Origin: an uncultured Gammaproteobacteria bacterium
GTDB taxonomy: Bacteria; Patescibacteriota; Patescibacteriia; UBA9570; JBBTWU01
Assembly (NCBI GenBank): GCA_964364425.1
Contig: CAYIMB010000001.1
Span: forward strand, 6,941-70,940
Length of the DNA stretch: 64,000 nucleotides
Direction of reading: 5' to 3'
In this document: positions 9,263 through 54,011 of the stretch, in pieces
Layout of the letters: every line of letters starts with the position of its first letter
Position numbering within the stretch: the stretch's first letter is position 1
The notes under the pieces: model-generated
What the model was told of the DNA's origin: nothing
Databases searched by the model: none
What the model saw: only the letters and a program-made list of their open reading frames with translations
Translations under genes and position numbers: made by a program

Positions 9263-9679
9263 ATGTTTGGATTGACTGGACAAGTGATAGGATTTATTGC
9301 CAAAGATATTGTTTGGAATACGGTGTATTTTCCCATTTGGTGGTACACCCGTGGGATTTTGCGTATCTTGGTGTTAATGAAGCACCAAGTGTCCAGCCTG
9401 GCCCGCACATTGCATTTACCCACGTTGTTCAAATATTTGTTGAAACCAATGTACGGCTACACAGACATCATTAGTCGGATCATCAGTTTTTACGTACGCA
9501 TAGTTCAGTTTATTGTTCTCTTGCTGATCACGTTGGTTGTGGTTGTAGGCCTGGTAGTCCTCTTAGCGGTGTGGATTACCGCGCCGGTCTTGGTTCTGTA
9601 TGGAGTTGCCTTCCACTTGGGTTGGATTGAGTTTAATCTTTATGCCTTGATTGCATGGAACGTTGGACTCCCAGTGTAG
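9263..9679 (+). CDS. Hypothetical integral membrane protein (138 aa)
   Basis: Several hydrophobic helices; lies directly upstream of the Clp-like gene. Confidence 0.5.
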   Translation: MFGLTGQVIGFIAKDIVWNTVYFPIWWYTRGILRILVLMKHQVSSLARTLHLPTLFKYLLKPMYGYTDIISRIISFYVRIVQFIVLLLITLVVVVGLVVLLAVWITAPVLVLYGVAFHLGWIEFNLYALIAWNVGLPV

Positions 9680-9684
9680 TTGGT

Positions 9685-21483: not shown

Positions 21484-23160
21484 ATGCCAGGAGGGATTTC
21501 AGAATTAGCCGTGGTCATGGGCTTGGCTGCTGTGTTGGGAATTATTCTTCGTCTATTTAAACAACCGTTAATTTTGGCGTATGTAGCGACCGGAGCTTGC
21601 ATAGGCTTATTTGGATTATTCCAGCTTCCGGACAAAGAAACATTTCAAATCTTTTCAGATCTAGGTATTATGTTTCTCCTGTTCTTGGTTGGATTGGAGA
21701 TGAATTATGCTTCACTCAAGGTGGTAGGCAAGGCTTCCATCATAGTTGGGCTAGCGCAGATTATGTTAACCGCCCTGATTGCCTTGGGGATTGCCCTGAT
21801 CTTCCGCTTCAGCTTACTTGAGTCTGCCTACATCAGTGCAGCTTTGACCTTCTCCAGCACTATTATTGTAGTGAAGTATCTTTCGGATAAAAAGGACGTA
21901 AATAGTCTGTATGGAAAAATCAGTGTTGGGGTGTTATTGGTCCAAGACGCGGTGGCTATTTTGACTCTGTTTTTCCTGACTAGCTTTTTAACCGAATCAG
22001 CCGTTCAGGTGACGCAAGCCTTGACCACTATTGGTTTTGGAATTCTGTTATTCATGTGTATTTTCTTGATTGGACGGTTTTTGTTGCCACCGCTGATGCG
22101 CTCAATTGGGCGTTCTCCCGAATTAGTCTTTGTGGTCAGCTTAGCGTGGTTATTTCTAGTGGTGGGCGCAGTGCACCAACTAGGATTTTCTTTAGAAATT
22201 GGAGGCTTTTTGGCTGGTGTCGCCTTGGCCCAAAGCGCAGAACACATGCAGATTGCTCACCGCATAGGAGCTTTGCGCGACTTTTTTCTCCTCATCTTCT
22301 TTGTCATCCTTGGCTCCTCCTTAATCTATGCTGACTTTCAGGGGTTGTTTGTTCCCATTCTCACACTCACCCTATTTGTACTGATAGGCAAACCGTTAGC
22401 CGTCATGGGAATTATGGGCTTCTTGGGGTATAGAAAACGAACCAGCTGGTTGACCAGTGTAACTCTTGGACAGGTGTCTGAGTTCAGTTTAATTTTGGTT
22501 GCGTTAGGCTTGCAACTTGAACATATCTCAAACCAAGTGGTGAGCCTGGTGACCGCTGTAGCTATTTTGACTATTACTTTTTCCACGTATGAAATGATGT
22601 ACGCAGATAAAGTGGCCAACAAGCTTTCCAGCCTTTTATCTGTGTTTGAAAGAAAGGTGACCAAGGAACCGCATTGGTCAACACAGAAAATTAAGAAGCC
22701 AATTATCTTGATTGGCGCTCACCGGACTGGCCAAAGTATTTTGGCTAACCTACCCATGGAGGAAGCCTTGGTCATAGATTTTGACCCTGAATTAATACAG
22801 CATTTAAAACAACGCGGATATAAAACTTTATTTGGAGATATTAGTGACCCAGAAGTTTTTGAAGCAGCTAGGTTTGGTCAAGCAGAATTAGTCATCTCAA
22901 CCAGCCCAGATATTGAAGACAATGTGTTACTGTTAGAAAAAATTCGGAAGCTGAGACGTCACCCCTTAGTTATTTTACGGGCAGAAACAGAGCGAGAAGC
23001 TGAAGTACTGTATAAACAAGGCGCGGACTACGTGCTCCTCCCGCACTTTACCTCCGGATATTACATTGGCCTAGCCTTGTCCAAGAATCGCACAGCCAAA
23101 AAACTCCATGCTTTGAGGAAAAAAGACGAAAAAATGTTGAACTTACAGGTCGTGTCCTGA
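21484..23160 (+). CDS. Cation:proton antiporter (CPA2/Kef-type) with C-terminal RCK/TrkA-N domain
   Basis: About 12 TM helices followed by a Rossmann-like RCK domain. Confidence 0.8.
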   Translation: MPGGISELAVVMGLAAVLGIILRLFKQPLILAYVATGACIGLFGLFQLPDKETFQIFSDLGIMFLLFLVGLEMNYASLKVVGKASIIVGLAQIMLTALIALGIALIFRFSLLESAYISAALTFSSTIIVVKYLSDKKDVNSLYGKISVGVLLVQDAVAILTLFFLTSFLTESAVQVTQALTTIGFGILLFMCIFLIGRFLLPPLMRSIGRSPELVFVVSLAWLFLVVGAVHQLGFSLEIGGFLAGVALAQSAEHMQIAHRIGALRDFFLLIFFVILGSSLIYADFQGLFVPILTLTLFVLIGKPLAVMGIMGFLGYRKRTSWLTSVTLGQVSEFSLILVALGLQLEHISNQVVSLVTAVAILTITFSTYEMMYADKVANKLSSLLSVFERKVTKEPHWSTQKIKKPIILIGAHRTGQSILANLPMEEALVIDFDPELIQHLKQRGYKTLFGDISDPEVFEAARFGQAELVISTSPDIEDNVLLLEKIRKLRRHPLVILRAETEREAEVLYKQGADYVLLPHFTSGYYIGLALSKNRTAKKLHALRKKDEKMLNLQVVS

Positions 23161-24732
23161 GTAAGACAGGTTGAAGGATTTATTGCACAGGGGGAAATCA
23201 GGAATGATATTACCTAATACACACCAGGCCAGAGCATCCCAGTTGTGGAAGCCGGCGTCTCTGATTTTTACCCGGTTAATTTTACCTTGAGAATCAGTCA
23301 TCACCACATACTGTAATTCACCCCTATTTGATTCCACACAGCTCCAACCAAAACTATTCGGGTTAAGGTCTACGCTCGTTTGTATTTCGCCAGCTTGTTT
23401 TAAGCCCGACAAGCACTGTTCTATGATGTGAATGGATTCAAGCAATTCATCCCGGCGCAGAAGGAAGCGAGCCAGCACATCTCCTTCTTTTCTGACTGGA
23501 ACGGTAAATTGGATTTTGGCGTATTGCCAGGTGGGAAAGTCTCGTCTGGCATCAATATGTATGCCTGAAGCCCGGGCTCCAACCCCAACAACTCCTAAAT
23601 CTTCAGCCACCTGTTTCTTCAATAGGCCGGTTGTTTCCAAGCGGTCAAGAGCACTAGGCATGGCCAAAACAATCTTTAGAATCTCATTCATTTCTGCAGC
23701 AATGCGTTTGAGCTCAGCCAGCAAGCGGTGTTGCTGGTCTTGGGTAAGGTCTTGTTTCACCCCGCCTAGAGTATTTACTCCCCGTAAAAATCGACTTCCC
23801 GTCAGCTCACGGTTGAGTTCAAGTAATTGTTCACGTAAGCGCCAGAGTTGGGAAGCGCCAAAATTGCAACCAATACCAACATTCATGTTGGCCAGGTCAT
23901 GCAAGTGAGTGTTCACCCGCTCTAGCTCCAGGAAAATCATGCGCAACCATTGGGCTCTGATGGGAATAGTCACACCCGCGGCATCTTCTACAGCAGCACA
24001 CAGCCCTGCGGAGTGGGCTATACTGTTGTCGCCAGAGATTTGTTCACTTAAATGGAGCCACTTGTCCTGGGGTAGGTGTTCAAACAATTTTTCCACCCCC
24101 CGGTGTTTCCAGCCAAGACGAATTTCTAAGTTCTGAATAGGTTCTCCGGCCACTTGGAAACGGAAATGGCCTGGTTCAATCACACCAGCGTGAATGGGGC
24201 CCACCGGAACCTCATATATTCCTTCACCCTCATAGCGTTTAAATGGATATGGTCTGGCGTCAGGCGTGCGTTTGACCGGAGCGTTCCAAGCCACATCTTT
24301 GCGTAAAGGAAAAAAGTCCGTCGGCCAATCACTGTGAGCAATGACAGATTTTAGTTCTGGGTGGTTGGAGGGAATCAAACCAAACATATCCCAAATATCC
24401 CGCTCATACCTGGCGGCAGCTACAGACAGGGCGGCGAGGCTGTGGTATTCAGATGATTGTTCCGGAACAACTGTACGTAGGATCAAGATCGATTTTTCTG
24501 CGTCTACTGACCAGATCAAGTACAGTCCAAACCCCTTGCTCTGAACACGTTCGTCCGTAGCAAAGTAATTAGACACGCGGGCGTGGGTGAAGGTTCGCTT
24601 CACGGCTGAAGCCACTTGGTACCACGTCTCAACGGGAACGGTGAATTGGTAACGGTCACCGTTCTGCTCAATACTTTGAGCCAAGTGCGGCCAATCCGCT
24701 AAGGTTTTGTTGAGTTGGTCAACCAGTGTCAT
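23143..24732 (-). CDS. Fused NuoC/NuoD-like (HycE/HyfG-like) large subunit without Ni-Fe ligand cysteines
   Basis: NuoC-like N-terminus (ERYERDIWDMFGL) and large-subunit core (GPIHAGVIEPGHFRF...WKHRGVEKL). The L1 motif reads QISGDNS in place of R-x-CGxC-G, and the C-terminus reads DFPLCNKS in place of DPCxxC. Confidence 0.85.
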   Translation of the reverse strand: MTLVDQLNKTLADWPHLAQSIEQNGDRYQFTVPVETWYQVASAVKRTFTHARVSNYFATDERVQSKGFGLYLIWSVDAEKSILILRTVVPEQSSEYHSLAALSVAAARYERDIWDMFGLIPSNHPELKSVIAHSDWPTDFFPLRKDVAWNAPVKRTPDARPYPFKRYEGEGIYEVPVGPIHAGVIEPGHFRFQVAGEPIQNLEIRLGWKHRGVEKLFEHLPQDKWLHLSEQISGDNSIAHSAGLCAAVEDAAGVTIPIRAQWLRMIFLELERVNTHLHDLANMNVGIGCNFGASQLWRLREQLLELNRELTGSRFLRGVNTLGGVKQDLTQDQQHRLLAELKRIAAEMNEILKIVLAMPSALDRLETTGLLKKQVAEDLGVVGVGARASGIHIDARRDFPTWQYAKIQFTVPVRKEGDVLARFLLRRDELLESIHIIEQCLSGLKQAGEIQTSVDLNPNSFGWSCVESNRGELQYVVMTDSQGKINRVKIRDAGFHNWDALAWCVLGNIIPDFPLCNKSFNLSYSGHDL

Positions 24733-24736
24733 AGAG

Positions 24737-26242
24737 TTAGTAGTTTAATACCAGTTCGGTTAATTTAGCCAGGTATACGGTAAGGCCCAACGGCAGCATG
24801 AGGCCAAGTCCCAGCATGAGCGTTCCGTTTAAGATCATAGCCGCACTGTTCCAAGCTGAAATGCGTACACCTTCCGGAGTATGAACGTGACCATTGTCAT
24901 CCGTTGTGTCTGATACCGGTTTGTGGTTAAACACCAAGCGCATGAGGTTGTATAAGAATCCGACAAAGACAATGACCAACAGGCCCAAGAGCAGCCAGAG
25001 CATCCACCCAGGTGCGTCACTGAGCCCCCAGAGTAAACTAAACTTGCTCAGGAAAATACTGAACGGGGGGAATCCGGTCATGGCCACGGCTGCCAGCATA
25101 AGAGCTAGGCCGGTCATGGGCATAACCTTCATTAAATTTGAAATGTTGGGGATTTTGGTTGATTGGTATTTTAGGAGCACATTTCCGGCGGCAAAGAAAG
25201 AAAAACTTTTGGCAATAGAATGGTTAATGACTTGGAATAAAGCGGCAAAGACACCAAGCGGGGTGGCGAGCGCTAAGCCAATCACAATCAAACCCATGTT
25301 CTCTATGGAACTATAGGCAAACAAACGTTTGTAGTTGTTCTGTCTGAGCAAAGACAGAGCAGCAATCCCTACAGACAAGAAACCTAAAATATACAGTAAT
25401 GTTCCGGTAAATTCTGTGCCTACGGATAAGTCTGAAATCATTTTAACCCTAATCAGAGCAAATAACGCTACGTTGAGCAACACAGCTGAAAGGAGTGCGC
25501 TGATTGGAGTAGGAGCTTTACCATGCGCATCTGGCAACCACGTGTGCATAGGCACCAAACCAATTTTGGTGCCGTATCCAATCAACAAGAAGACAAAGGC
25601 AATTTTGACTAATTCAGGGTTTAACTCACTGCCTAAACTGTGTAAGTGTGTCCACAGGAGTGTGCTGGCTTCTTCTCCTCCGGCGTTTAACCCAGAGAAG
25701 TAGAGCAGCACTGTTCCGGCCAAGGCTAAGGTCAGGCCTACCGAGCTCATGATGACGTACTTCCAAGCGGCCTCAATGCTTTGTTTGTGTCTGTAAATGC
25801 CAACTAAGAATGCGCTAGCTAAGGTTGTTGCTTCAACACCCACCCAGAGTAAGCCTAAGTTGTTGCTACTCACAGCTAAACTCATGGCCAACAAAAAGAC
25901 GTTGTACAAGACGTAATACAATTTCACCTGTCTGGCGTCCATTTCCTGTTGTGCCTCTTCTGTTTTCACATACCCAATAGAGTACAAAGTGACGGAGAAA
26001 CCAATGAACGCAATTAACGCCAAGAAGAAGAATGACAGGGGATCAATGTATAACAAATCACCAAACAACCCCAGACTTTGGTCTACACTCACCACCTCCC
26101 GGTACAAGAAATACATACTCCCAATAGACACCAGACTTGAAGCTAAAGTGGCTGTCTCAAAGATGACCCGTTTCCGTGTGGCCAAACACACCAGCGCGGC
26201 AACCAGTGGAGCAATCAGATATAACCAGTAGACAAGTGTCAT
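24737..26242 (-). CDS. NuoM/N / HyfF-like antiporter-type membrane subunit
   Basis: About 14 TM helices and the Mrp/NuoLMN antiporter-family pattern. Confidence 0.8.
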   Translation of the reverse strand: MTLVYWLYLIAPLVAALVCLATRKRVIFETATLASSLVSIGSMYFLYREVVSVDQSLGLFGDLLYIDPLSFFFLALIAFIGFSVTLYSIGYVKTEEAQQEMDARQVKLYYVLYNVFLLAMSLAVSSNNLGLLWVGVEATTLASAFLVGIYRHKQSIEAAWKYVIMSSVGLTLALAGTVLLYFSGLNAGGEEASTLLWTHLHSLGSELNPELVKIAFVFLLIGYGTKIGLVPMHTWLPDAHGKAPTPISALLSAVLLNVALFALIRVKMISDLSVGTEFTGTLLYILGFLSVGIAALSLLRQNNYKRLFAYSSIENMGLIVIGLALATPLGVFAALFQVINHSIAKSFSFFAAGNVLLKYQSTKIPNISNLMKVMPMTGLALMLAAVAMTGFPPFSIFLSKFSLLWGLSDAPGWMLWLLLGLLVIVFVGFLYNLMRLVFNHKPVSDTTDDNGHVHTPEGVRISAWNSAAMILNGTLMLGLGLMLPLGLTVYLAKLTELVLNY

Positions 26243-26243
26243 A

Positions 26244-26894
26244 TTAGTCTTCCTTCAACTCACTTAATTTTTCTGTATCTGTGGAGTGCATGAGTGTATT
26301 CATCCGGGCGGTCAACAGAGAGAGAATGGTAATGCCTAAGACCACATCTACCAATAGGCCTAGTTCCACCACCGCCGGTAAGCCTAACGTTGTGGCTATG
26401 GCTAACAAGAATACACCGTTTTCCAAAACTAGAAAGCCAACCATCTGACTCAAAGCTGCGCGTTGTGAAATGACCATCAGGAAGCCCAAGAAGATCAAAG
26501 ACATGGCCACCACCAACTGCCACTCACCATGGGGTGAAATAACTGAAGCAACGGGCTGGACAATAAAGTAGGAGAACACAATCAGTAAGCCGCCAATTAA
26601 GGCGATTGGCGCCGGGTTAATGACCGTTGGGGCTTTCAGGGCCGGTTTCAGACGCTTCAACAACAGGAGCAATCCACAGGGGATAGCCACAGCCTTTACT
26701 CCAATGGTGAGTAAAGCGGTCAGCCACAGGTGTTGTTGTCCTAAGTTCACCGCCACAAGGATGGTAATGATGCCAACTAGCGCGGCCTGTCCAATATATA
26801 AGTAGACTTGTGATCTAAAGATTGGCCTGACCAGCATGATCAAGGTAATAAACAGAACTAAACCGGTAAACCATTGAATAAAGTCAGTTATCAT
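26244..26894 (-). CDS. HyfE-like small membrane subunit
   Basis: 216 aa, polytopic, in the position of hyfE between the HyfC-like and HyfF-like genes. Confidence 0.6.
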   Translation of the reverse strand: MITDFIQWFTGLVLFITLIMLVRPIFRSQVYLYIGQAALVGIITILVAVNLGQQHLWLTALLTIGVKAVAIPCGLLLLLKRLKPALKAPTVINPAPIALIGGLLIVFSYFIVQPVASVISPHGEWQLVVAMSLIFLGFLMVISQRAALSQMVGFLVLENGVFLLAIATTLGLPAVVELGLLVDVVLGITILSLLTARMNTLMHSTDTEKLSELKED

Positions 26895-27838
26895 AAGCTT
26901 GCAAAGAGTTGAGTTACTAGGGCAATCATGGCCACCACCCAGCCCATACCCAGGAGTGCCGGTACTCTGAGCAAGCGCATTTTAGCCATAGAAGACTCCA
27001 CCAAGGCAATGAGGATAGCTAAGATGAACACTTTTCCTAACCAGAGGACTGTCCCAAGCAACACTGCGCTTAACGTCCACTCCGTAGCCATGCCCCAAGG
27101 CACAACTAAGCTAGCCAAAATGCTCAACATCACCGTGAGTTTAGTCATACTCCCAATCTCCATTAAGGCCAGGTTTTTTCCGGAATTTTCCAAGATCATG
27201 GCTTCATGTACCATGGTGAGCTCTAAGTGTGTGGTTGGGTTATCAAAGGGATAACGGGCATTTTCCGCCAGGGTGATGAGGAAAAAAGACAAGAAGACCA
27301 AAATCAAGGCTGGGTCTAACCAGGCATGTGGGGTGCCTAAGACATGACTGATTATTTCCCCAGGGTAGGTAGATCCTCCGGTCAAGGCTAAAGCAAACAA
27401 GGCAGTAATAAAGACTGGTTCAGCCAAGGCGCTGATCATGGCCTCTCTAGAAGAACCCATGCCTCCAAAGGTCGTCCCTGCGTCCAAGCCGGACAGGACC
27501 AAGAAAGCAGTACCCAGGACCAGAATAAAACCGACAAAAATCATATCAGCCTGAGCGCCAAGGTTGGTGACGTTTGGAAGTAAAAATGCAGCTGTTGCGG
27601 TGGTTCCAAACACCATATATGGGGCGAGTTTAAACACCCAGGAGGTCACATCAGACACCACAGCATCTTTACGGATAAATTTGAGAATATCTCGGTATCC
27701 CTGGAGCAAGGGAGCGCCAACGCGTCCTTGCAGACGAGCTTTGACTTTACGTATAACCCCCGTGACCAGAGGCGCAACGGTCAGCAGCAGCAGACCTTGA
27801 GCGAGAGAAATCAGAATGGCTTGTGTTGTCTGAGTCAT
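26891..27838 (-). CDS. NuoH / HycD / HyfC-like membrane subunit
   Basis: N-terminal GxIRKxKARLQGRxGxPLLQxYRDxLK signature. Confidence 0.85.
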   Translation of the reverse strand: MTQTTQAILISLAQGLLLLTVAPLVTGVIRKVKARLQGRVGAPLLQGYRDILKFIRKDAVVSDVTSWVFKLAPYMVFGTTATAAFLLPNVTNLGAQADMIFVGFILVLGTAFLVLSGLDAGTTFGGMGSSREAMISALAEPVFITALFALALTGGSTYPGEIISHVLGTPHAWLDPALILVFLSFFLITLAENARYPFDNPTTHLELTMVHEAMILENSGKNLALMEIGSMTKLTVMLSILASLVVPWGMATEWTLSAVLLGTVLWLGKVFILAILIALVESSMAKMRLLRVPALLGMGWVVAMIALVTQLFASL

Positions 27839-29925
27839 ATCGTTTTGGCTAACAACAGGAGAGCAATTAACGCCAGCATCATGTAAGTGAGGTAACTATA
27901 GATGTGACCGGATTGTACTTTTTTTACGGAGTTGCCTAAGCGAATGGAAAACCGGGTGATGGGTCTGACCACATAGTCATCAAAGAAGGCCAACGTGTGG
28001 ACTGAATATGAACGGACATGCCAGAAGTAAAAGTTATCCTGCCCTTTGGTCACATGGACTTGTTCTTTAGGACGCAAGAAATAGCGCAAGGCATGCCGCA
28101 CAGGGCTGGTAAACCCAAGGCCTGAATATTGCATGCGTTCATTTAGGGGAGAACCGCAATCCCAAGACGGGCCTTTGACCACTCTGTTTTTCCCTCCCAC
28201 TAATTTCAAGATAATCCAAGCCAGTAGCATCAAGCCAAGCAGAAATACCAGAACCGTCCAAGCGCTGTTTCCAAATGAGACTGTTCCAGTGAGCTGTGCT
28301 TGATAGCTGAGGGTGGTTAGTGGCTCCAGTAGGTCAATAACGTTTGATCCAGCCGCTTGTTTTGTGATCCCCCAAAATTTAGGTAGACGTGCCAGTGTAT
28401 CTAGGACCTCACCCATGCCAAGCGAGATGCCTAAGGCACCTGCCGCCAAGACCAGCATAGAAATACGCATAGACAAAGGAGTTTTAGCCGGTGTAGGAAT
28501 ACCAGCGTCATGGGGTGTCCGGTTCCGGCCTAAGAACACAATTCCAAACATACGGGTGAAGACCACAAAGGCTAAGCCTGCGGCAAAAGCCAGGGCTCCT
28601 AAAATAAGAGGAAAGATAAAGCGCGCTCCCATACTTCCGGTCATAAAACCCTGTAACAACGTTTGTAGCATGAGCCACTCAGAGGCAAATACGCTGAGTG
28701 GAGGAAGGCCCATTAACCCAATTGCACCAACCAAGAAGATCATGGAAGTCAGAGGCAATACTTTGGCCACCCCACCTAGTAAATCCATAGACCTGGTGTG
28801 GAAGGAAAAATACACACTCCCCGCACCCAAGAATAATAACGATTTAAGCACCGCATGATTTACCGTATGCAGCAACGCAGCAATAATTGCTACGTGGGCA
28901 ATGGCCGGTTTCCCAATTGAGGTAAAATACATAGCCGCACCCAAGCCAATAAAAATAATTCCAATATTCTCTATAGAAGAGAAGGCTAAGGCTTTTTTCA
29001 TGTCGCGGCGTTCAATGGCATAAAACACGCCCACCAAAGCAGAAATTCCACCTAAGGCCATGACCAACAGCCCCCACCAGGGAGACATGACTTCCAACAT
29101 GCTTAAACCAAATACGCGGAAGAAGCCATACACCGCTACTTTTAACATCACTCCGGACATCAAGGCGGAAATATGCGACGGGGCTTGTGGGTGTGCTTCC
29201 GGCAACCACATATGCATGGGGACTAAGCCGGCTTTTGTTCCGAAGCCTAAAACTAAGAGGATAAAAGCAAAGGTGGCCATGCCCGGGGTCAGAAATCCGC
29301 CCACGCCCGTCCAATCGTTAAAAAACAGAGATCCGCTGTTATATGAGAAAATAATAAACACGGCCATCAAGAATGCGGTGCCAATCTGCGTCATAATGGC
29401 ATAGATAAATCCGGCTGGTCGGGCTTTGGCGTGGGAGTGTTGGTACACCACCAGCGCAAACGAAGTGAGCGCCATGATTTCCCAGGCAAATAAGAAAGTA
29501 AGAGCATGGGAGGCCACTAAGACCAAGGCCATAGACGCAATAAACCAGTTGGTCATGGCTCCTAGCCAGCCAAGACTATGGTGGCCAATATAGAGCTTGG
29601 CGTACCCAATTCCGTATAAGCTAGTAACAGCGGCTATACCACCCAGAAGTAGCAAAAATAGGCCAGAAAAGGCATCTATATGGATAGATCCTTGGCCAAA
29701 AATGAGGAAATAGGGAAGAGAAAAGGCTTTGTCTTGAGCGGCTTGATGTAAGGCTGTATATCCAACCAGAGCTAAGACCACGCCTCCTACCACGCCTCCC
29801 CAACCACTCACCCAGCGGGACAACACTTGGGCACGGCTACATACCAAAGCAAACGCCCCAGACGCCACTAAGATGCCTAGACTGGTGGTAAAAAGTGCCA
29901 GATTTGAGCTCCCAACCTGTATCAT
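27835..29925 (-). CDS. NuoL / HyfB-like antiporter-type membrane subunit
   Basis: 696 aa, about 17 TM helices, antiporter-family core. Confidence 0.8.
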   Translation of the reverse strand: MIQVGSSNLALFTTSLGILVASGAFALVCSRAQVLSRWVSGWGGVVGGVVLALVGYTALHQAAQDKAFSLPYFLIFGQGSIHIDAFSGLFLLLLGGIAAVTSLYGIGYAKLYIGHHSLGWLGAMTNWFIASMALVLVASHALTFLFAWEIMALTSFALVVYQHSHAKARPAGFIYAIMTQIGTAFLMAVFIIFSYNSGSLFFNDWTGVGGFLTPGMATFAFILLVLGFGTKAGLVPMHMWLPEAHPQAPSHISALMSGVMLKVAVYGFFRVFGLSMLEVMSPWWGLLVMALGGISALVGVFYAIERRDMKKALAFSSIENIGIIFIGLGAAMYFTSIGKPAIAHVAIIAALLHTVNHAVLKSLLFLGAGSVYFSFHTRSMDLLGGVAKVLPLTSMIFLVGAIGLMGLPPLSVFASEWLMLQTLLQGFMTGSMGARFIFPLILGALAFAAGLAFVVFTRMFGIVFLGRNRTPHDAGIPTPAKTPLSMRISMLVLAAGALGISLGMGEVLDTLARLPKFWGITKQAAGSNVIDLLEPLTTLSYQAQLTGTVSFGNSAWTVLVFLLGLMLLAWIILKLVGGKNRVVKGPSWDCGSPLNERMQYSGLGFTSPVRHALRYFLRPKEQVHVTKGQDNFYFWHVRSYSVHTLAFFDDYVVRPITRFSIRLGNSVKKVQSGHIYSYLTYMMLALIALLLLAKTI

Positions 29926-30464
29926 ACAGAGGTTGTTTTAGCGGCCAGACGGTCAACGGCAGCCAAGAGTCCGGCCAACAGATCTGAAGGGGTTGGTGGG
30001 TTTCCAGGAATCCAGATATCCACAGGCAAGACCGCATCCACGCCACCAACAATTCCGTAAGAACCCTTAAAAATACCACCGTCTTTAGCGTTATCTCCAA
30101 AAGCCACCACAATTTTAGGTGTTGGCATGGCGTTATACGCACGTTTTAAGGCCTCTTCCATATTTCGTGAGACCGGACCGCTGACTAACAACATATCTGC
30201 GTGCCTAGGCGAAGCAGCCACATGAATACCATAGCGTTCCATATCATAGTAGGGGTTGGCCAACATATTCACTTCAACCTCTTCCGCGTTGCTGGAACCC
30301 GGATCAACCTCACGGATATGCAAAGAACGGCCAATCAGCCGTTTTATTTTTTGACTTAACTCCCCACGCAGCAGTTCAATATCTTTTGGAACAGCGGCTT
30401 CCTGAGCGAATTTTTTTTTGGTCACTACCCCGTTTAAGAGGCTTTTTTTGAGCAACTGAAACAT
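29922..30464 (-). CDS. NuoB / HycG-like small subunit lacking all four [4Fe-4S] cysteine ligands
   Basis: Conserved NuoB scaffold (ASPRHADMLLVSGPV...YNAMPxPKxVxAFG...GGVDxxLPVDIWIPGxPP). The four Cys positions read P, S/A, N and N. Confidence 0.85.
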   Translation of the reverse strand: MFQLLKKSLLNGVVTKKKFAQEAAVPKDIELLRGELSQKIKRLIGRSLHIREVDPGSSNAEEVEVNMLANPYYDMERYGIHVAASPRHADMLLVSGPVSRNMEEALKRAYNAMPTPKIVVAFGDNAKDGGIFKGSYGIVGGVDAVLPVDIWIPGNPPTPSDLLAGLLAAVDRLAAKTTSV

Positions 30465-30636
30465 AATTGAGAATTATAACTCCTCCCGCAAATCGAATTT
30501 TATCAGACAACTGTCAAGTAGTATTAGGAATACGAATCTCCTTGTCAAATGGCCTAAAAGCGAGTTTTATACAGCATGTCAAGGCAAAAAGGGGCTTGAC
30601 GCCGGGAAAAAAAATGATCCAAAAATTTTGGCTGGG

Positions 30637-30665
30637 TTGACACAAAATCCCGTACTCCGTAGACT
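30637..30665 (+). promoter_or_regulatory. Sigma70-type promoter TTGACA-N17-TAGACT for the ATP synthase operon
   Basis: Consensus -35 with a 17-nt spacer, 24 nt upstream of the atpZ-like ATG. Confidence 0.6.
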
Positions 30666-30689
30666 GGGAACGCGTAAACTTGACAGAGT

Positions 30690-30901
30690 ATGGATAAAGA
30701 ACCGTCTTGGGCTGATTCAATGCGCCTGGTAGGTCAGCTTGGTTTTGAAATAGCGTTGCCCCTGGTGGGAGGAGCGTGGGGAGGGCACTGGCTGGACCAA
30801 CGCTATACTGCCTCACCTAAGTTTTTGTTGGTTGGGATGGTTTTAGCCGTGATTCTCTCTACACTCTTGGTGGCACACAAAATTAAACAGTTGCTGAAAT
30901 A

Positions 30902-30902
<1 letters not shown>
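30690..30902 (+). CDS. AtpZ/AtpI-like small membrane protein
   Basis: 70 aa, two TM helices, immediately upstream of atpB. Confidence 0.6.
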
Positions 30903-31977
<1,075 letters not shown>

Positions 31978-31978
31978 C

Positions 31979-32479
31979 ATGGAATTCATAGAAAAATTTG
32001 GGATCGATTGGAAACTGTTGATTGCGCAAGCGGTTAACTTTGCCATTGTGCTTTTGGTCTTATGGAAGTTTGCTTACAAACCCATCTTGAAGTTGCTGCA
32101 TGACCGGGAAAACAAAATTGATCAGAGTTTAAAAGACGCGGACAGAGTGGAAAAGTTGAAAGTGGAAATGGAGCAGGAAAAGTCCAAAGTTTTGGCTCAG
32201 GCAAAGAAGGAAGCACAGGTGGTTTTGCAGGAGGCACAGAAGAAAATCGAAATGAATAGACAGGCACAAATGGACAAAACAAAAGGGGAGGTACAGCAGC
32301 TAGTGACCAAAGCCAAACAAGAAATTGCTGCGGAAAAGGTGAAGGCCATGAAGCAAGCGGAAAAGGAATTGGGCTCAATTGCGGTGACTATTGCAGAGAA
32401 GTTAGTCAAACGTGAGCTGACTGATACAGATCATGCTCGCTTGGTGAGTGAGACTTTGAAGGAAATAGGAACCGTATGA
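31979..32479 (+). CDS. atpF: F-type ATP synthase Fo subunit b
   Basis: One TM helix then a long charged helix. The ATG at 31979 is preferred over the TTG at 31970. Confidence 0.85.
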   Translation: MEFIEKFGIDWKLLIAQAVNFAIVLLVLWKFAYKPILKLLHDRENKIDQSLKDADRVEKLKVEMEQEKSKVLAQAKKEAQVVLQEAQKKIEMNRQAQMDKTKGEVQQLVTKAKQEIAAEKVKAMKQAEKELGSIAVTIAEKLVKRELTDTDHARLVSETLKEIGTV

Positions 32480-32877
32480 AGCGCGTATCCCCGGGGCAAC
32501 TCGCCAGACAATTATTCAAAGCTTTGGAAAGCTCGCAAGAGCAGGACCTAGTCATTCAGGTATTTGCGGAGCAACTGGTGCGGCACAGACTGAGACGACA
32601 TTTGCCTCAAATCTTGCGAGCCCTAGAGACGCTTTTAGATGAGAAAGAAGGATTGGTTAAAGCGAAGTTTACTAGTCCAGTAGAGGTAACGAACCACTTA
32701 AAAAAACAAGTTGAGCAGGCCGTTTCTCAAGCTGTGGGTAAACGTGTGGAACTAGAGACGCACCAGGACCAAGACTTACTTGGTGGAGCCGTGCTCAAAA
32801 TAGGGGATACCGTGTACGACGCTTCAATTCGTACACAATTAGCAAAATTGAAACTTTCGGTAGAGAACTATGGATAA
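32476..32877 (+). CDS. atpH: F-type ATP synthase subunit delta (short)
   Basis: Position in the operon and OSCP-like C-terminal region. Confidence 0.75.
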
Positions 32878-34369
32878 AGAAAAAATATTAGACTCGCTTA
32901 AACAACACATTTCTAGCTTTGCCGCTACGGTGGATAAAGCAGAAGTGGGAACCGTGATTGAAGTGGGAGACGGCGTGGCCAAATTATCTGGACTAACCCA
33001 AGCGGTGGCAGATGAAATGATTGAATTTGCCAACGGTGCGTATGGAGTGGTGTTGAACTTAGAGTCAGAACAAGTGGGCGCTATGGTGTTGGGTGATTTT
33101 TCTACCATCCGTGAAGGTGAAACGGTCAAACGAACCAATCGTATTTTGTCTGTTCCGGTGTCTGATGCCTTGATTGGTCGCGTGGTCAATCCTTTAGGCA
33201 TGCCTTTGGATGGAAAAGCAGCTATCTCATCCAAGGAATTCTATCCAGTAGAACGTATTGCACCTGGTGTTATTCAACGTCAAAAAGTGGATCAACCGGT
33301 ACAAACGGGTATCAAAGCTATAGACGCCATGATCCCAATTGGTCGTGGTCAACGTGAGTTGATTATTGGTGACCGGCAAACTGGTAAAACGGCCATTGCT
33401 ATAGACGCCATCATCAACCAAAAGGGGAAAGACCTGATTTGTATTTACGTAGCTATAGGTCAAAAGGAATCTAAGACCGCTCGGATTGTGGCCAAACTGC
33501 AAGAGACCGGAGCTATGGACTACACTATAGTGGTGAACGCTCCAGCTTCTAGCCCAGCTTCCTTGCAATATATTGCTCCATACGCCGGTGTAGCTATAGC
33601 TGAATTCTTCATGGACCAAGGGAAAGATGTATTGGTTGTATATGATGATTTGTCCAAGCATGCTTGGGCCTACCGTCAGATCTCTTTGATCTTACGTCGT
33701 CCACCGGGTCGTGAAGCCTACCCGGGTGATATTTTCTATGCTCACTCTCGTTTGTTGGAACGGGCTAACCGTCGAGCCAAAGAATTTGGTGGAGGTTCCA
33801 TCACTGCCTTACCAATTATTGAAACTCAAGCCGGTGACGTGTCTGCCTATATTCCAACCAACGTGATTTCCATTACTGACGGTCAAATCTACTTGGAGTC
33901 AGACTTGTTCTACCAAGGTATTCGTCCAGCCTTGAACGTAGGTTTGTCTGTGTCTCGTGTAGGTTCAGCAGCCCAACTCAAGCCTATGAAAAAAGTAGCT
34001 GGAAAATTACGTTTAGACTTAGCTCAATACCGTGAGTTGGCCGCTTTTGCCCAATTTGGGTCTGACTTGGATGAGGCAACCAAAAAGCAGCTAGAGCGCG
34101 GTAAACGCACCATTGAAATCTTGAAACAAGATCAATACCAACCAGCTTCTGTGGCGCATCAAGTGTTGGCCATATACGCTGTGTCTAACGGATTCATGGA
34201 TGATGTAGAAGTAGACAGCGTTCGTCGTTTTGAAAATGAAATGACGGAATATGTTGATCAATCCGCTCGTGAGTTAGTGGAAAAAGTGGAAAGTGGTGAT
34301 TGGAGTGATGAAACTGCAGACAAAGTGAAAAAATTGATTGAGGACTTTAAGCAAGTGTGGAGTAAGTAA
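32870..34369 (+). CDS. atpA: F-type ATP synthase subunit alpha
   Basis: Walker A motif GDRQTGKT and alpha-specific motifs. Confidence 0.95.
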
Positions 34370-34370
34370 T

Positions 34371-36708
<2,338 letters not shown>

Positions 36709-36725
36709 ATCGATTATTACGCGAC

Positions 36726-37190
36726 ATGAAACTGACACTCAAAGTCACTACTCCAGACCGAACGTTGATCAACGCTGAAGTTGATCAGGTGACGGTACCT
36801 ACAAAAGAAGGGGAGATCACCATTCTCCCTGGACACGTGTCCTTAATGGGTGTGCTGGCACCAGGGGAATTAAGTATGAAAACTGATGCGAAGGAAGAAG
36901 CTGTTGTGGTCTACGGTGGCTTTGTGGATATCAGAGATGGAAGAGAAGTCAGAATTTTAGCTGATGAAGCTGCTCACGTTGCGGAGTTGGATTTAGAAAA
37001 GGCGGAAGCCGCACACGCTCTCGCGGTGCGGGTTATGGCTGAAAAGTTCAACCCAAGCGACTATGAAGATGCAGCACTTGCTGTTGAAAGAGAATTGGCG
37101 ACCATTCGAGTTGCTCGCAAATGGAAAGCCAAAGGCTTTGGAACAAGTACGGTGACAAGTGGGATCCCTGGGGCGCAAAGAAAAGAATAA
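36726..37190 (+). CDS. atpC: F-type ATP synthase subunit epsilon
   Basis: Beta-sandwich N-terminus, helical C-terminus, last gene of the operon. Confidence 0.85.
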   Translation: MKLTLKVTTPDRTLINAEVDQVTVPTKEGEITILPGHVSLMGVLAPGELSMKTDAKEEAVVVYGGFVDIRDGREVRILADEAAHVAELDLEKAEAAHALAVRVMAEKFNPSDYEDAALAVERELATIRVARKWKAKGFGTSTVTSGIPGAQRKE

Positions 37191-38150: not shown

Positions 38151-38159
38151 GTGGGAAGT

Positions 38160-41100
38160 ATGGAAAAAATCTTAGACGGTCTGAATTCAGCTCAAGCCGA
38201 AGCGGTGTGCCACCGGAATGGTCCATTGTTGTTGGTGGCCGGAGCGGGGACGGGAAAAACGACAGTCATTACCAGGCGCTTGGCCAAGCTCATTCAGGAT
38301 GGGGTGGCTACTCCTGATCAGGTATTAGCTCTGACCTTTACTGACAAGGCAGCGGGTGAGATGGAAGAGCGTATAGATACTTTGATGCCCTATGGGTATA
38401 CAGATTTATGGGTATCTACATTTCATTCTTTTGGAGAACGTTTGCTCCATGAGTATGGGCTGGACATAGGCCTGCCGCATCAATTCAAATTGTTGAATCA
38501 AACGGATCAATGGTTACTCTTGCGCGAACATATTGAGGAATTGGGCCTGGAGTACTACCGGCCAAAAGGCAATCCGACCAAATTTGTTGAAGCGTTATCT
38601 CACCATTTTTCTCGTTTGAAAGATGAGATGATTACACCGGAGCAATATGTGGAATATGCAGAAAAGTTGTGTCTAAACTTAGACGCAGAAGTTGCGCGGA
38701 CAAAACAAACCTTAACAGATGAAGAACGGGCAGGTGCAGATGAAGCCATACGTATTCGCGAGTTAGCCCACGCCTACCATGTATATCAACAGTTATTACT
38801 GGCAGAAAACGCTTTAGACTTTGGTGATCTGATTTTCCATACCGTGCAGTTACTAAAAAAACGTCCGGCTATTTTAAAAAAATTGCGTGATCAATTTCGC
38901 TATATTATGGTAGATGAGTTTCAAGATACCAACTTGGCACAATACGAGCTGATCAAGTTAATTGCTTCACCTAAAAATAATTTGGTGGCCGTGGGTGATG
39001 ATGACCAATGCCTCCCGGTAGGAACAAAAGTAACCATCCCCGGCGGAGAAAAAAGTATTGAGAGCATTAAATCTGGCGATGTGGTTTTGACTGCAGTCGG
39101 GAAAGGAAGTTTGAGCACTTCCGTAGTTTTAGCCTGTTCAAAAAAGAAAAAGACTTCAAGATTTCTTACATTTCAACTAGAAGATGGTCATTCATTAACT
39201 GCTACAGATAATCACAAGCTTTTTTGTTACGTCCCAAGAATTGATCAAGGGGGTAGAACCTATGTTTATGTGATGCATAGTTCATTGTTTGGGTGGAGGA
39301 TTGGAATAACAAATGATTTGGCCACCAGGTTATCTTTAGAAAGGGGTGCTGATAAAATTATAGCTTTACGCTCATTTTCTGATCCAGATGAAGCGAAGTT
39401 CTATGAAATACTGTGGGTTCTGCGTTATCAAATTCCGCCTGTTTGTTTTAAAGAAAGAGAGGGGGTAGCCATTAAGGGGGAATGGTTGAGTCGTCTATAC
39501 CATGAAATAGACACTGAAAAGAATATACAAAAGTTAGCAAAAGATCTGAGGGTAGATTTGCATAGTCATCATGTTGGTTTAGATAGTGTCAATAGAGGTC
39601 GGGGCAAGCGGCTAAAGATTCATTTTAAACTTTGCTATAGAAGTCATAAAATAAAAGGGAGGAATGATTCGATTCTATCTCAACCCCTTGTTCAACATAT
39701 AGTTGAGTTCCAAACTTCCCAATTAGACATCATCCGGAAATTAAAGTTAGCGGGAATTGAAACTCAGAAAGCTAAAAAAGGAATCAGGATCAGAAAGGCA
39801 GGTGTTGACTTAACTGTATTAGAAAACTTTGCACAAAAGGTTGCAGAGATTACAACAGGCTACATTGAATACTCTTTCGATGTCGGGAGAGTAAATATAC
39901 AATCTAAAAAAGCTTTATGTATGCCAGCAGGGAATGTTGTGATTGGTCATTTTTTGCCCGTACAAGTTAAAAATCATATTGAGTATAAAAAGGTTATTGC
40001 TATTCAAGAAAAAGTTACTACGGAGAATGTATATGATTTGGAGATTGCCAGAAGTCACAACTTTTTGGCTAATGGAGTAGTAGTACATAATTCGATTTTC
40101 AAATGGCGTGGAGCATCCGTGTCTAATATTCTGCACTTCCAAAAAGATTTTCCAAACCTGAAGCAAATCGTGCTCACAGAAAATTACCGGTCAGGGCAAC
40201 CTATTCTGGATTTAGCCTACCAATTCATTCAGCAAAATAATCCGGACCGTTTGGAATCAAAACTAGAGATTCAAAAACGGTTGGTGGCTAAGTCAGGACG
40301 TGAGGGAAAGGTATTTCATTTGCGCAGTATGACCGGAGAAGGTGAGGCGCATACTATTGTGAGAAAGATTGCGGAGTTGAAACAGGAACATCCGGACTGG
40401 ACCTGGAGTGATTTTGCCGTTTTGGTTAGGGCGAATGATCATGCGGAAAGTATTTTACCGTTGTTGGAACGGGCCAACATTCCTTACCAGTATGTAGCTT
40501 CCACGGGATTATTTTTGAAACCGCTTATGTTGGATATTTTGTCGTATTTGCGCGTGGTGGAAAATGTGCATAACAATTTGGCTTTGTACCGCGTGCTGAC
40601 CATGCCCATGTGGAAGCTGGCGGCAGAAGATGTGATGGCAGTGTTGAATTACACTGCCCGCAAACCGGTGGGGATGTTGGACACGCTGAAGAACTGTCGA
40701 GCCATTGGGGGCCTGAGCGTTCCAGCGTGTGTGACCATAGAACGCATGCTTTCACTCATGGCCCAGCACTCCCAATTGGTGCGTGAAAAACATGCGGGAG
40801 AGGCGGTCTTGAAGATTGTTCAAGACGTTGGATTGATGAAATGGATGACGGATCAAGAGGAACAGAAGGCGGCACAACATTTGGTCTTACTCAACCAATT
40901 ATTCCAACTGATCGCCTCGTTTGAACAAAGTGCTGAGGATAAGCGGGTTAAATACTTTCTACACAACGTAGATTTAATGCTTGAGGCTGGGGATGCTGGT
41001 GCACTGAAAGTAGATATTGATGAAGGGCCGGAATCAGTTAAAGTCATGACGGTACACGCTTCCAAGGGTCTGGAGTTTCAAGCCGTATTTGTCACCAATC

Positions 41101-42182
41101 TAGTGGATAAACGATTTCCTTCAGTTGGTCGGAACGAACCTATTTCTGTTCCGGATGATTTGCTCCAAGAAATTTTACCCACCGGGGATGCGCATCTTCA
41201 AGAGGAACGTCGTTTATTTTATGTTGCCTGTACCCGGGCTAAACAATACTTATTCCTTACCAGTGCGGAAGATTACGGTGGTATGCGGAAGAAAAAACCC
41301 AGCCGGTTTTTAGTTGAATGTGGATTGGCTGAAGTCAAAGCTGAACCAACCGGCGTGGTGGCCTTTGCAGCGCAAGATCAGGCCATTCCTGCGGAACGCG
41401 CTGTGGTGTTGTCGCATGCCCCTGAGACGTTTAGCTTCTCCCAATTTGAGGCCTATGAACGCTGTCCCTGGCAATACCGGTACCGGTTTGTCCTCAAAGT
41501 ACCGGCCCCCGGAAACTACTCAGCTTCCTTTGGTCGTAGCGTGCATGACACCTTGTTGGAGTTTTTTAAACGTGTGCGGTCTAACACAGAAGCCTCACAG
41601 GGCACGTTGTTTGGTCCGGCGGAAAAACTTACGCTTCCCACAGACAAAGACCTCCTCCAAATTTTTGAAGACAAATGGCAGTCTGATTGGTATGCTACAC
41701 CCAAAGCTGAACAAGAATATAAAGAAGCCGGTCGTAACGCCTTAAAAGAGTTTTACAACATCCATCATCAGGCCTGGCCCAAGGTGAAGTATTTGGAAAA
41801 AGGATTTTCTTTGCGTCTAAAAGACGTCACGGTGAAAGGTAAAATTGACCGGGTAGATGGAGTGGGAGATTCAAAGGTTCAGGTCAATGTGGTGGATTAT
41901 AAAACTGGGCGGTTCAAAGAAAAGAAAGACTTCAACCAGTTGTTTATTTACGCCATGGCCATTCAGGACGTGTTTAAAGAAGAACCGCAACAGGTTGGAT
42001 ATTATTTTATTGAAGAAAATAAACCTTTGGATAAACCGGTGACTCAGCAGGCCTTAGACAAAACGCGTGATTGGGTGCTGAACCTAGCTGAGCAAATTCT
42101 GTCCGGCGACTTTACGCCCTCCCCAGGCCAGCAATGCCAATTTTGTGATTACCGCTCCATTTGTGAATTTAGAGCGGTTTAA
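38160..42182 (+). CDS. UvrD/PcrA-family helicase fused to a C-terminal Cas4/AddB-like PD-(D/E)xK nuclease with a Cys cluster; interrupted by an intein
   Basis: Walker A motif GAGTGKT, motif II DEFQD, motif III VGDDDQ/SIFKWRGA split by the intein, C-terminal VVDYKTG nuclease motif and C...CxxCx5C cysteines. The ATG at 38160 is preferred over the GTG at 38151. Confidence 0.85.
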   Translation: MEKILDGLNSAQAEAVCHRNGPLLLVAGAGTGKTTVITRRLAKLIQDGVATPDQVLALTFTDKAAGEMEERIDTLMPYGYTDLWVSTFHSFGERLLHEYGLDIGLPHQFKLLNQTDQWLLLREHIEELGLEYYRPKGNPTKFVEALSHHFSRLKDEMITPEQYVEYAEKLCLNLDAEVARTKQTLTDEERAGADEAIRIRELAHAYHVYQQLLLAENALDFGDLIFHTVQLLKKRPAILKKLRDQFRYIMVDEFQDTNLAQYELIKLIASPKNNLVAVGDDDQCLPVGTKVTIPGGEKSIESIKSGDVVLTAVGKGSLSTSVVLACSKKKKTSRFLTFQLEDGHSLTATDNHKLFCYVPRIDQGGRTYVYVMHSSLFGWRIGITNDLATRLSLERGADKIIALRSFSDPDEAKFYEILWVLRYQIPPVCFKEREGVAIKGEWLSRLYHEIDTEKNIQKLAKDLRVDLHSHHVGLDSVNRGRGKRLKIHFKLCYRSHKIKGRNDSILSQPLVQHIVEFQTSQLDIIRKLKLAGIETQKAKKGIRIRKAGVDLTVLENFAQKVAEITTGYIEYSFDVGRVNIQSKKALCMPAGNVVIGHFLPVQVKNHIEYKKVIAIQEKVTTENVYDLEIARSHNFLANGVVVHNSIFKWRGASVSNILHFQKDFPNLKQIVLTENYRSGQPILDLAYQFIQQNNPDRLESKLEIQKRLVAKSGREGKVFHLRSMTGEGEAHTIVRKIAELKQEHPDWTWSDFAVLVRANDHAESILPLLERANIPYQYVASTGLFLKPLMLDILSYLRVVENVHNNLALYRVLTMPMWKLAAEDVMAVLNYTARKPVGMLDTLKNCRAIGGLSVPACVTIERMLSLMAQHSQLVREKHAGEAVLKIVQDVGLMKWMTDQEEQKAAQHLVLLNQLFQLIASFEQSAEDKRVKYFLHNVDLMLEAGDAGALKVDIDEGPESVKVMTVHASKGLEFQAVFVTNLVDKRFPSVGRNEPISVPDDLLQEILPTGDAHLQEERRLFYVACTRAKQYLFLTSAEDYGGMRKKKPSRFLVECGLAEVKAEPTGVVAFAAQDQAIPAERAVVLSHAPETFSFSQFEAYERCPWQYRYRFVLKVPAPGNYSASFGRSVHDTLLEFFKRVRSNTEASQGTLFGPAEKLTLPTDKDLLQIFEDKWQSDWYATPKAEQEYKEAGRNALKEFYNIHHQAWPKVKYLEKGFSLRLKDVTVKGKIDRVDGVGDSKVQVNVVDYKTGRFKEKKDFNQLFIYAMAIQDVFKEEPQQVGYYFIEENKPLDKPVTQQALDKTRDWVLNLAEQILSGDFTPSPGQQCQFCDYRSICEFRAV
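39009..40091 (+). mobile_element. Intein (361 aa) in helicase motif III
   Basis: Begins with Cys directly after VGDDDQ, has a block-B TxxH (TATDNH), and ends VVVHN followed by Ser. The extein halves rejoin to the canonical GDDDQSIFKWRGA. Confidence 0.8.

Positions 42183-51285: not shown

Positions 51286-54011
<2,726 letters not shown>

Follow-up and report, generated by a model that had tools for sequence, protein, structure and literature searches.

An Ehr/Hyq-type complex of Patescibacteria whose small subunit has lost the ligands of its N2-type iron-sulfur cluster

The DNA considered here (the window) is a 64-kb stretch of a metagenome-assembled genome (MAG) of the Patescibacteria, or candidate phyla radiation (CPR), from Hainich groundwater. 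Its reverse strand carries a six-gene operon of the Ehr/Hyq type (23143-30464), and the complex that this encodes is a six-subunit member of the NiFe-less branch of the group 4 hydrogenase/complex I superfamily. Of particular interest is the first gene of the operon (29922-30464), an intact open reading frame (ORF) with an ATG start and a single stop, which encodes a small subunit of NuoB/HycG/HyqI type, 180 amino acids long. The Ehr/Hyq small subunit normally bears the only predicted redox centre of these complexes, an N2-type [4Fe-4S] cluster; the clade to which the window belongs is without it.

The genes of the operon are tightly packed, with stop and start codons that overlap or stand 1-4 nt apart, and all six ORFs are intact and translationally coupled. 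The small-subunit stop is overlapped by 4 nt by the start of the next gene (27835-29925), which encodes a HyfB/HyqB-like antiporter-type subunit of 696 amino acids with the NuoL/M/N fold and a C-terminal extension (Pfam Proton_antipo_M, E 1e-51); it scores 569 bits with the NCBIfam model of hydrogenase 4 subunit B, which is under the cut-off of 667. There follow, on the same strand, a NuoH/HycD/HyqC-like membrane anchor of 315 amino acids and no cysteines (26891-27838; Pfam NADHdh, E 4e-38), a HyfE/HyqE-like small membrane subunit of 216 amino acids (26244-26894; NCBIfam hydrogenase 4 membrane subunit, E 3e-23 but below cut-off, and a weak match to Pfam Oxidored_q2), and a second antiporter-type subunit, HyfF/HyqF-like, of 501 amino acids (24737-26242; Proton_antipo_M, E 9.5e-54), whose best solved relative is MbsH (6u8y_H). 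The last gene (23143-24732) encodes the large subunit, a fused NuoC-NuoD protein of HycE/HyqG type with 529 amino acids, which aligns to HycE with an E value of 1.9e-67. The same six subunits (HyqI, B, C, E, F and G) make up the HyqBCEFGI complex of Azorhizobium (Sprecher et al. 2012, PMC3357923).

A reading of the sequence alone had taken the product of 29922-30464 for a NuoB/HycG-like subunit, and database comparisons bear this out. The protein matches Pfam PF01058 (Oxidored_q6; E 3.9e-25, 88.5 bits against a cut-off of 27) and the NCBIfam NuoB subfamily model NF005012 (119.3, threshold 116), and its best solved relatives are Escherichia coli HycG (7z0s_G, E 4.6e-32) and Pyrococcus furiosus MbhJ (6cfw_J, E 1.3e-29). 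It is predicted to adopt the flavodoxin-like NuoB fold: an AlphaFold model built on a 70-sequence alignment (predicted local distance difference test, pLDDT, 79.1) has HycG, NDUFS7 and MbhJ as its top Foldseek matches, with a template modelling (TM) score of 0.87 and a root-mean-square deviation of 2.2 A for MbhJ and TM scores of about 0.75 for NDUFS7 chains. A prediction from an 18-sequence alignment of cysteine-free proteins reached a pLDDT of 47 and was dropped. The ASPRHAD loop, the equivalent of the NDUFS7 loop, is invariant, the PVD..PGxPP motif is conserved, and the remaining family-invariant residues of the small subunit are all retained. The NuoB/NDUFS7 proteins and the small subunits of MBH and MBS have this fold and these two motifs in common with the window protein, but a [4Fe-4S] cluster is bound by every one of them, and in MBS catalysis takes place at the proximal cluster itself.

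What stands in the place of the ligands? In the HMMER alignment with HycG, the CxxC region of the window protein reads VDPGSSNAEEVE against VDCGGCNGCEIE, and the two later ligand segments read GDNAKDGG against GACGNSGG and PGNPPTP against PGCPPTP. The sequence-only reading had the window letters exactly, but its HycG strings were slightly wrong. The ligand columns are thus occupied by S58, E61, N125 and N155, and the substitution of every N2-cluster cysteine, as had been claimed, holds good. Positions 58 and 61 (the CxxC pair), 125 and 155 are Cys in 65 of 65 cysteine-bearing, non-CPR relatives, and the same CxxC...C...C residues were named as N2-type ligands in HyqI and are reported to be kept in all its orthologues (PMC3357923). 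Position 55, which corresponds to the first Cys of the HycG 'VDC', is A, P or S in the Ehr/Hyq family and in MbhJ, and is therefore not a ligand. The four-Cys proximal/N2 [4Fe-4S] site of the NuoB superfamily is missing from the window protein, whose cysteine count is zero; re-alignment is therefore unable to restore the site, and a misalignment that hides cysteines is excluded.

The large subunit is likewise without metal ligands. The NiFe cysteines C241, C244, C531 and C534 of HycE are replaced by S233, N236, S523 and G526, and, as we read the alignment, the quinone-ligand columns Nqo4 H38 and Y87 fall on I185 and G234. Cysteines number 10 across the six operon proteins, and those conserved in the family are only C245 of the large subunit and C590 of the HyfB-like protein. 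No NuoI or NuoE-G genes lie within the operon, the HycB, HycF and FdhF partners are absent from the window complex, and the ferredoxin motif CxxCxxCxxxCP was found in no ORF of the 64-kb window, nor in 12 of the 13 cysteine-free loci in which it was looked for. Because the ligands of both peripheral subunits are gone, and there is neither a ferredoxin-like subunit nor a conserved set of cysteines, the alignments show a complex without a recognisable Fe-S, NiFe or quinone-ligand site.

Could such a complex still be redox-active, by way of a non-cysteine cofactor or of an electron-carrier partner that docks to it, as proposed for complexes of formate dehydrogenase with Ehr? Ehr complexes elsewhere have been proposed to pair with this enzyme (PMC6349859; PMC7894505), and the Ehr complex of Geobacter is abundant on formate (PMC7894505). 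In an actinobacterial clade without N2 ligands, moreover, where a HyfB-like gene comes after that of the small subunit, the small subunits have a fused N-terminal ferredoxin-like domain of four cysteines (CP...CxxCxxC), and this domain suggests a relocation of electron transfer. The window protein, however, lacks any such fusion and has no cysteine of any kind, and the ferredoxin motif is missing as described. A docked partner would find no wire to the membrane interface once the proximal cluster is gone, and the quinone-ligand His and Tyr of NuoD are missing too. A surviving redox role is, on this evidence, very improbable.

How far is the change confined to the ligands? Scanning GTDB representative genomes gave 80 loci, and the six proteins were extracted from 85 loci, of which 20 are cysteine-free and 65 cysteine-bearing in the small subunit. 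Among the small-subunit columns that are at least 85% conserved in the cysteine-bearing group, the consistent replacements are the four ligand columns. Each of the other five subunits has 7-90 positions that are at least 90% conserved in the cysteine-bearing loci and unchanged in the cysteine-free group, as against 0-2 that are replaced. The large subunits read S-x-S-G in all 69 relatives in which the four positions are readable; all readable large subunits being without NiFe cysteines, the whole family is of Ehr/Hyq type. Loss of the last predicted redox centre sets the window clade apart from relatives whose membrane and coupling-loop residues are identical to its own; in those relatives, as here, both CxxC NiFe motifs of the large subunit are lacking, and most loci have no HycF/NuoI ferredoxin subunit.

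The residues that replaced the ligands are biased. Position 155 is D or N in 20/20 cysteine-free sequences, position 58 is S or T in 18/20 and position 61 is E in 13/20, and the quartet is under purifying selection. This raises the prospect that the former cluster site has become a site for a hard cation (Mg2+, Ca2+, Mn2+ or Na+), or a proton-loading site that gates the membrane arm. The S/T-E-D/N-D/N quartet, together with D54, E62, D124 and D128, would form an oxygen-rich, acidic pocket that either mimics the charge of [4Fe-4S](Cys)4 or senses an ion or pH. The acidic residues around the quartet are invariant, and the dominant CPR pattern, S-E-D-D, would carry a charge of about -3, like that of a reduced cluster with its four thiolates. 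A strict metal site would be expected to be more uniform, however: position 125 is G in six loci, one cysteine-free sub-clade retains Cys at position 61, and an operon from Chloroflexi has D-A-A-D. A cation or proton-loading site is rather unlikely on balance, and it would refine the explanation favoured below rather than oppose it.

The sequence-only reading had also proposed that replacement of every ligand reflects selection for a cofactor-free protein, not decay. Decay deserves a hearing, as the metal ligands of both peripheral subunits are gone and CPR genomes are reductive: an unused complex might have lost its cluster, its genes being left to drift. Five orthologous loci with 72-92% amino-acid identity were used for tests of selection. 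Pairwise dN/dS (the ratio of nonsynonymous to synonymous substitution rates) is 0.03-0.06 for the small-subunit gene, with synonymous sites saturated, and 0.02-0.10 over all six operon genes; as dS is saturated in most pairs, these numerical values come from the closest pairs only. Of the six proteins the small subunit has changed least, with 73% identity as against 57% for the large subunit, 49% for HyfB and 45% for HyfE. When the conservation of its core is normalised to that of the other subunits, cysteine-free and cysteine-bearing clades are equal (0.71 vs 0.68 in the 40-50% bin), and there is thus no relaxation.

The replacement residues themselves, P55, S/T58, E61, N125 and N155, are held in 12/12 close homologues, while their codons vary synonymously: P55 is written CCG, CCA, CCT or CCC, S58 as AGC, AGT or TCC and thus in both families of Ser codons, E61 as GAA or GAG, and N125 and N155 as AAC or AAT. 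Frameshifts and premature stops, the marks of a pseudogene, occur neither in the window gene nor in five close orthologues; the six coupled ORFs are intact, and more than 15 independent assemblies, from several CPR classes, have kept the operon. Truncated or frameshifted copies in most relatives, which a decaying remnant would leave behind, are not seen. The low dN/dS, the high conservation and the residues kept through synonymous change support selection for a cofactor-free protein, and decay is effectively refuted.

When, and how often, was the cluster lost? Cysteine-bearing members of the family occur in Methanoperedens, Acidobacteria, Verrucomicrobia, Rokubacteria, rhizobia and others. Cysteine-free members are mostly CPR (Saccharibacteria, Kaiserbacteria, Paceibacterota, Magasanikbacteria, Parcubacteria and Levybacteria), with a few MAGs that are otherwise labelled. 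The order of the six genes is identical in 11 of 15 cysteine-free genome loci, and in the close relatives of the window besides. A neighbour-joining tree was made from the concatenated large, NuoH-, HyfB- and HyfF-like proteins (1,980 columns), with the small subunit left out. All 14 usable cysteine-free loci fall in one clade, with 91 of 100 bootstraps, and the subclade of the window has 100 of 100. Because the cysteine-free loci are monophyletic in this tree, which matches the monophyletic CPR Ehr clade of Jaffe et al. 2020, the tree indicates a single ancient loss for the cysteine-free clade, in its common ancestor, by which the ligands became S/T, E (or C), D/N/G and D/N. With the small subunit as the only input (119 columns), neighbour-joining scatters the cysteine-free sequences over several groups, and the resulting tree is too weak for counting losses.

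Some of the cysteine-free loci carry unexpected labels. L002 (CAZRYK010000013.1) and L071, labelled Gammaproteobacteria and Thermoleophilia, and L069, an unclassified 'bacterium', lie inside the CPR cysteine-free clade of the concatenated tree; L047, labelled Desulfobacterales, is cysteine-free too, but is too short for that tree. These represent either wrong MAG taxonomy, mis-binned contigs or transfer of the operon out of CPR. The Chloroflexi MAG GCA_009692745.1 (L087:10001-17536) has the same six-gene operon, with the cysteine-free D-A-A-D small subunit and a NiFe-less large subunit, and represents either an independent loss or a transfer from CPR. The genome is non-CPR, and the genes around this operon include those for an acyl-CoA dehydrogenase, a PBP and a radical SAM enzyme.

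The actinobacterial clade introduced above (P0230; Streptosporangiaceae MAGs, L086:199-1035) has its N2 ligands replaced by D-E-D-S in 99 of 120 proteins and by close variants in the rest; its genomic context is that of a 2.3-kb contig. Like the Chloroflexi operon, it has in common with the window both the missing ligands and the order of small-subunit gene, then HyfB. Its four-Cys domain could hold a replacement cluster, whereas the window small subunit has no such domain, and in the P0230 clade the cluster may have been relocated to the fused domain rather than lost. At least three ligands are missing in roughly a quarter of the 150 nearest 50%-identity cluster representatives. A further candidate for comparison is the operon Rv0082-Rv0087 of Mycobacterium tuberculosis, which has the same gene order.

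Whatever the loss of the cluster signifies, the alignments show that the complex remains fully constrained, its putative proton-path residues, the acidic channel of its NuoH-like subunit and three coupling-loop motifs being unchanged. In the NuoH-like protein, 62 family-invariant positions are retained, 22 of them charged, among them H211 and E212. All, or almost all, of the loci in either group have E149, K231, K262, H353, H357, K361, E416 and C590 in the HyfB-like protein; in the HyfF-like protein, E137, K226 and K345 are invariant and H341 nearly so. The three coupling-loop motifs are the beta1-beta2 loop of the large subunit, where H181, E186 and H189 are conserved (71/72 loci), the ASPRHAD loop of the small subunit, and the conserved Cys of the HyfB C-terminal extension. 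By analogy with C537 of HycC in the structure of formate hydrogenlyase, this extension is probably ND3-like, with C590 (SWDCGS) as the ND3-loop cysteine. Among canonical proton-path residues, the chief lineage-specific change that was seen lies at position 400 of the HyfF-like protein, in transmembrane helix 12 (TM12); this residue is E in 49/49 cysteine-bearing loci and K in 10/16 cysteine-free loci, the window included.

Where does such a complex belong among known machines? The NiFe-less large subunit and the set of six subunits are those of Ehr/Hyq, and the HyqI-type Cys ligands are absent. From E. coli Hyf/Hyc (7Z0S) come the best solved matches for the small and large subunits (HycG and HycE), and HyfB, E and F are the best NCBIfam models for the membrane subunits; in contrast to Hyf/Hyc, the window complex has no NiFe ligands and no proximal cluster, and its NCBIfam equivalog scores are all below cut-off. 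The L1 and L2 cysteine motifs of group 4 [NiFe]-hydrogenases and their ferredoxin-type subunits (HycF/HyfH and HycB/HyfA) are wanting. Respiratory complex I is marked by the N2 cluster in NuoB, the quinone-ligand His and Tyr in NuoD, NuoI, NuoA/J/K and the N-module; of these the cluster ligands, the His and Tyr, and the NuoI and NuoE-G genes are missing here.

Mrp offers another comparison. The membrane-arm subunits are homologous to the antiporter subunits of Mrp, MBH and MBS, and the redox-independent MrpA/MrpD-type subunits have the same Glu/Lys/His set as the antiporter-like subunits of the window. The Mrp pattern of TM5 Glu, TM7 Lys, TM8 Lys and TM12 Glu/Lys is present as E149, K231, K262 and E416 in the HyfB-like protein and as E137, K226 and K400 in the HyfF-like protein, where the TM8 position is N257. 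Mrp, however, has MrpB, C, E, F and G, no peripheral arm and no homologues of NuoB, NuoCD or NuoH, whereas the window has a peripheral cap, a NuoH-like anchor and one small membrane subunit in place of the MrpB, C, E, F, G set.

The former NiFe pocket of the large subunit poses a question of its own. S233 (70/72 loci), D235, S523 and D528 are conserved family-wide, and the peripheral arm is the most conserved part of the complex, as would be expected of a part that catalyses or binds something, more than of a passive cap. Might ion flow be coupled to non-redox chemistry in this pocket, for example the vectorial hydration of CO2 to bicarbonate, or another reaction driven by protonation? Complex I-type subunits in the DAB and NDH-1MS carbon-concentrating systems drive chemistry of this kind, and the conserved H181, E186 and H189 could also be accommodated. 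But no carbonic anhydrase-like or other catalytic domain is found in or beside the operon, and the gene context yields no candidate substrate. The pocket residues are, moreover, identical in the cysteine-bearing relatives, and the loss of the cluster would be left unexplained. Coupling to non-redox chemistry is accordingly judged improbable.

Back to back with the operon lies a complete F1Fo ATP synthase operon (30690-37190, forward strand), identified from its ORFs and from the Pfam families of identical or orthologous genes, with the order atpI-like, a, c, b, delta, alpha, gamma, beta and epsilon. It is transcribed divergently from the Ehr-like operon, and the intergenic region between the two (30465-30689) has back-to-back promoter-like sites. 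Its two best sigma-70-like matches face outward, 30548->30520 (reverse) and 30637->30665 (forward), with 10/12 each as consensus matches only, and a GGGAGGAG motif stands 15 nt upstream of the small-subunit ATG. An Rfam scan of the window detected no RNA families.

ATP synthase genes lie within 10 kb in 7/20 cysteine-free loci and in 0/65 cysteine-bearing ones (Fisher p = 1.6e-5), and the linkage is thus specific to the cysteine-free clade and not a feature of cysteine-bearing Ehr/Hyq loci. Four arrangements are seen: divergent (the window clade), downstream and co-directional (L029 and L054), upstream and co-directional (L051), and with an AtpI-like gene downstream (L085). Recurrence of the adjacency in different arrangements argues for a functional link. 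The host lineage is of relevance here, as the ATP synthase is in general the only respiratory complex that CPR bacteria possess (PMC12577380).

How, then, might a complex I-like machine work with no redox centre? The proposal that we favour, from sequence comparison, is redox-independent ion translocation, an Mrp-like secondary exchange of cations and protons alongside the F1Fo ATPase, and we hold it to be evenly poised between true and false. The antiporter-like subunits would carry protons, and the NuoH/HyfE channel would provide a path for the counter-ion or for a proton. The cofactor-less NuoB-NuoCD cap would serve as a structural and gating lid of the NuoH-type channel, with the polar and acidic replacement residues filling the former cluster cavity and perhaps mimicking the lost cluster electrostatically. 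Together, the complex and the adjacent F1Fo ATPase would govern the membrane potential, the pH and the Na+/K+ balance of a cell that has no respiratory chain.

Several observations weigh against Mrp-like exchange. The MrpB/C/E/F/G-type small subunits, which Mrp uses for Na+, are absent, and a pure antiporter has no obvious need for a large and highly conserved peripheral arm. The near-invariant S/D/S/D residues of the former NiFe pocket, and a small subunit that is the most conserved of all, hint at a specific activity there. As to the ATP synthase, four of the seven adjacent loci are of the window's own clade and are partly non-independent, so that the statistic is inflated, and the small size of CPR genomes raises the chance of such adjacency. 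In our own alignment, the Na+ ligands Q32, S66 and T67 of the Ilyobacter tartaricus c ring are matched in the window's c subunit (31765-31977) by I, A and I; as we read them, these motif positions suggest coupling to H+. Since a passive cap explains the conservation of the arm and of the S/D/S/D residues incompletely, room is left for cation or pH sensing, non-redox catalysis and a docking redox partner, at the low probabilities given above.

What part of this is new? Ehr complexes are defined by their NiFe-less large subunits and have been 'suspected' to be redox-coupled ion pumps (PMC6349859). Jaffe et al. 2020 found that the CPR Ehr large subunits form a monophyletic NiFe-less clade and concluded only that there is no interaction with H2 (PMC7304191). 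In the literature on CPR or Patescibacteria and hydrogenase-related or complex I topics, that paper, which covers the large subunit, was the only one found. No statement on loss of the small-subunit cluster was found in the literature that was readable, and an earlier mention in Marreiros 2013 is possible. The CPR Ehr clade without NiFe ligands was thus already known; loss of the small-subunit cluster is the new part, with similar losses in other lineages. Tentatively, and with somewhat less than even confidence, this may be the first natural machine of the complex I superfamily with the whole coupling core (the NuoB-NuoCD-NuoH interface, the coupling loops and two antiporter-like subunits) and no redox centre.

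The Ehr/Hyq complexes occur in many lineages (Methanoperedens, Acidobacteria, Verrucomicrobia, rhizobia, Geobacter and CPR) and are commonly taken for redox-driven ion pumps; their activity is debated. A clade that has cleanly shed its last cluster, while every other constrained residue stays fixed, amounts to a natural experiment, in which either electron transfer is dispensable for the ion-translocating core or the peripheral module serves another purpose. If this is indeed a whole coupling core with no redox centre, the activity of the Ehr/Hyq core does not require electron transfer, and the 'Q/hydrogenase module' has a redox-independent role. It could be a lid gated by ions or pH, with carboxylate and amide side chains in place of the N2 cluster. 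Non-respiring CPR could then build or convert an ion gradient by means of this complex, as the missing partner of their F1Fo ATPase. For bacteria with an ATP synthase and no respiratory chain, a conserved, ATP-synthase-linked, complex I-like ion machine that needs neither electron donor nor acceptor bears on how the membrane is energised. To structural biology it would offer a minimal model of the complex I coupling interface that is cofactor-free and insensitive to oxygen.

On the other side of the operon, a gene for a Kef-type cation/proton antiporter (Na_H_Exchanger plus TrkA_N; 21484-23160, forward strand) converges on the large-subunit gene, and the 3' ends of the two overlap by 18 nt. 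L082, the closest orthologous locus, has this neighbour as well; L084 and L085 do not. From its position it is a neighbour only, and at most a putative member of the system.

Other genes in the window also stand out. A ClpB-like AAA+ protein of 925 amino acids (9655-12432, forward strand) shows clear similarity to the second AAA module only (AAA_2 and ClpB_D2-small), its first 370 or so residues having no Pfam match at E <= 1e-5. A UvrD/AddA-type helicase-nuclease of 1343 amino acids (38151-42182, forward strand; UvrD-helicase, UvrD_C and PDDEXK_1) carries an intein: a Hint/Intein_splicing match spans residues ~284-647, with a 'CLPVGTK' start and a 'VVVHN|S' end, inside the helicase motif DDDQ|SI..(F/W)RGA. 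GyrB (898 amino acids; 51315-54011, forward strand) has an intein as well (Intein_splicing, residues ~458-662), just before or inside its Toprim domain, and two intein-bearing housekeeping genes thus lie within 13 kb of each other.

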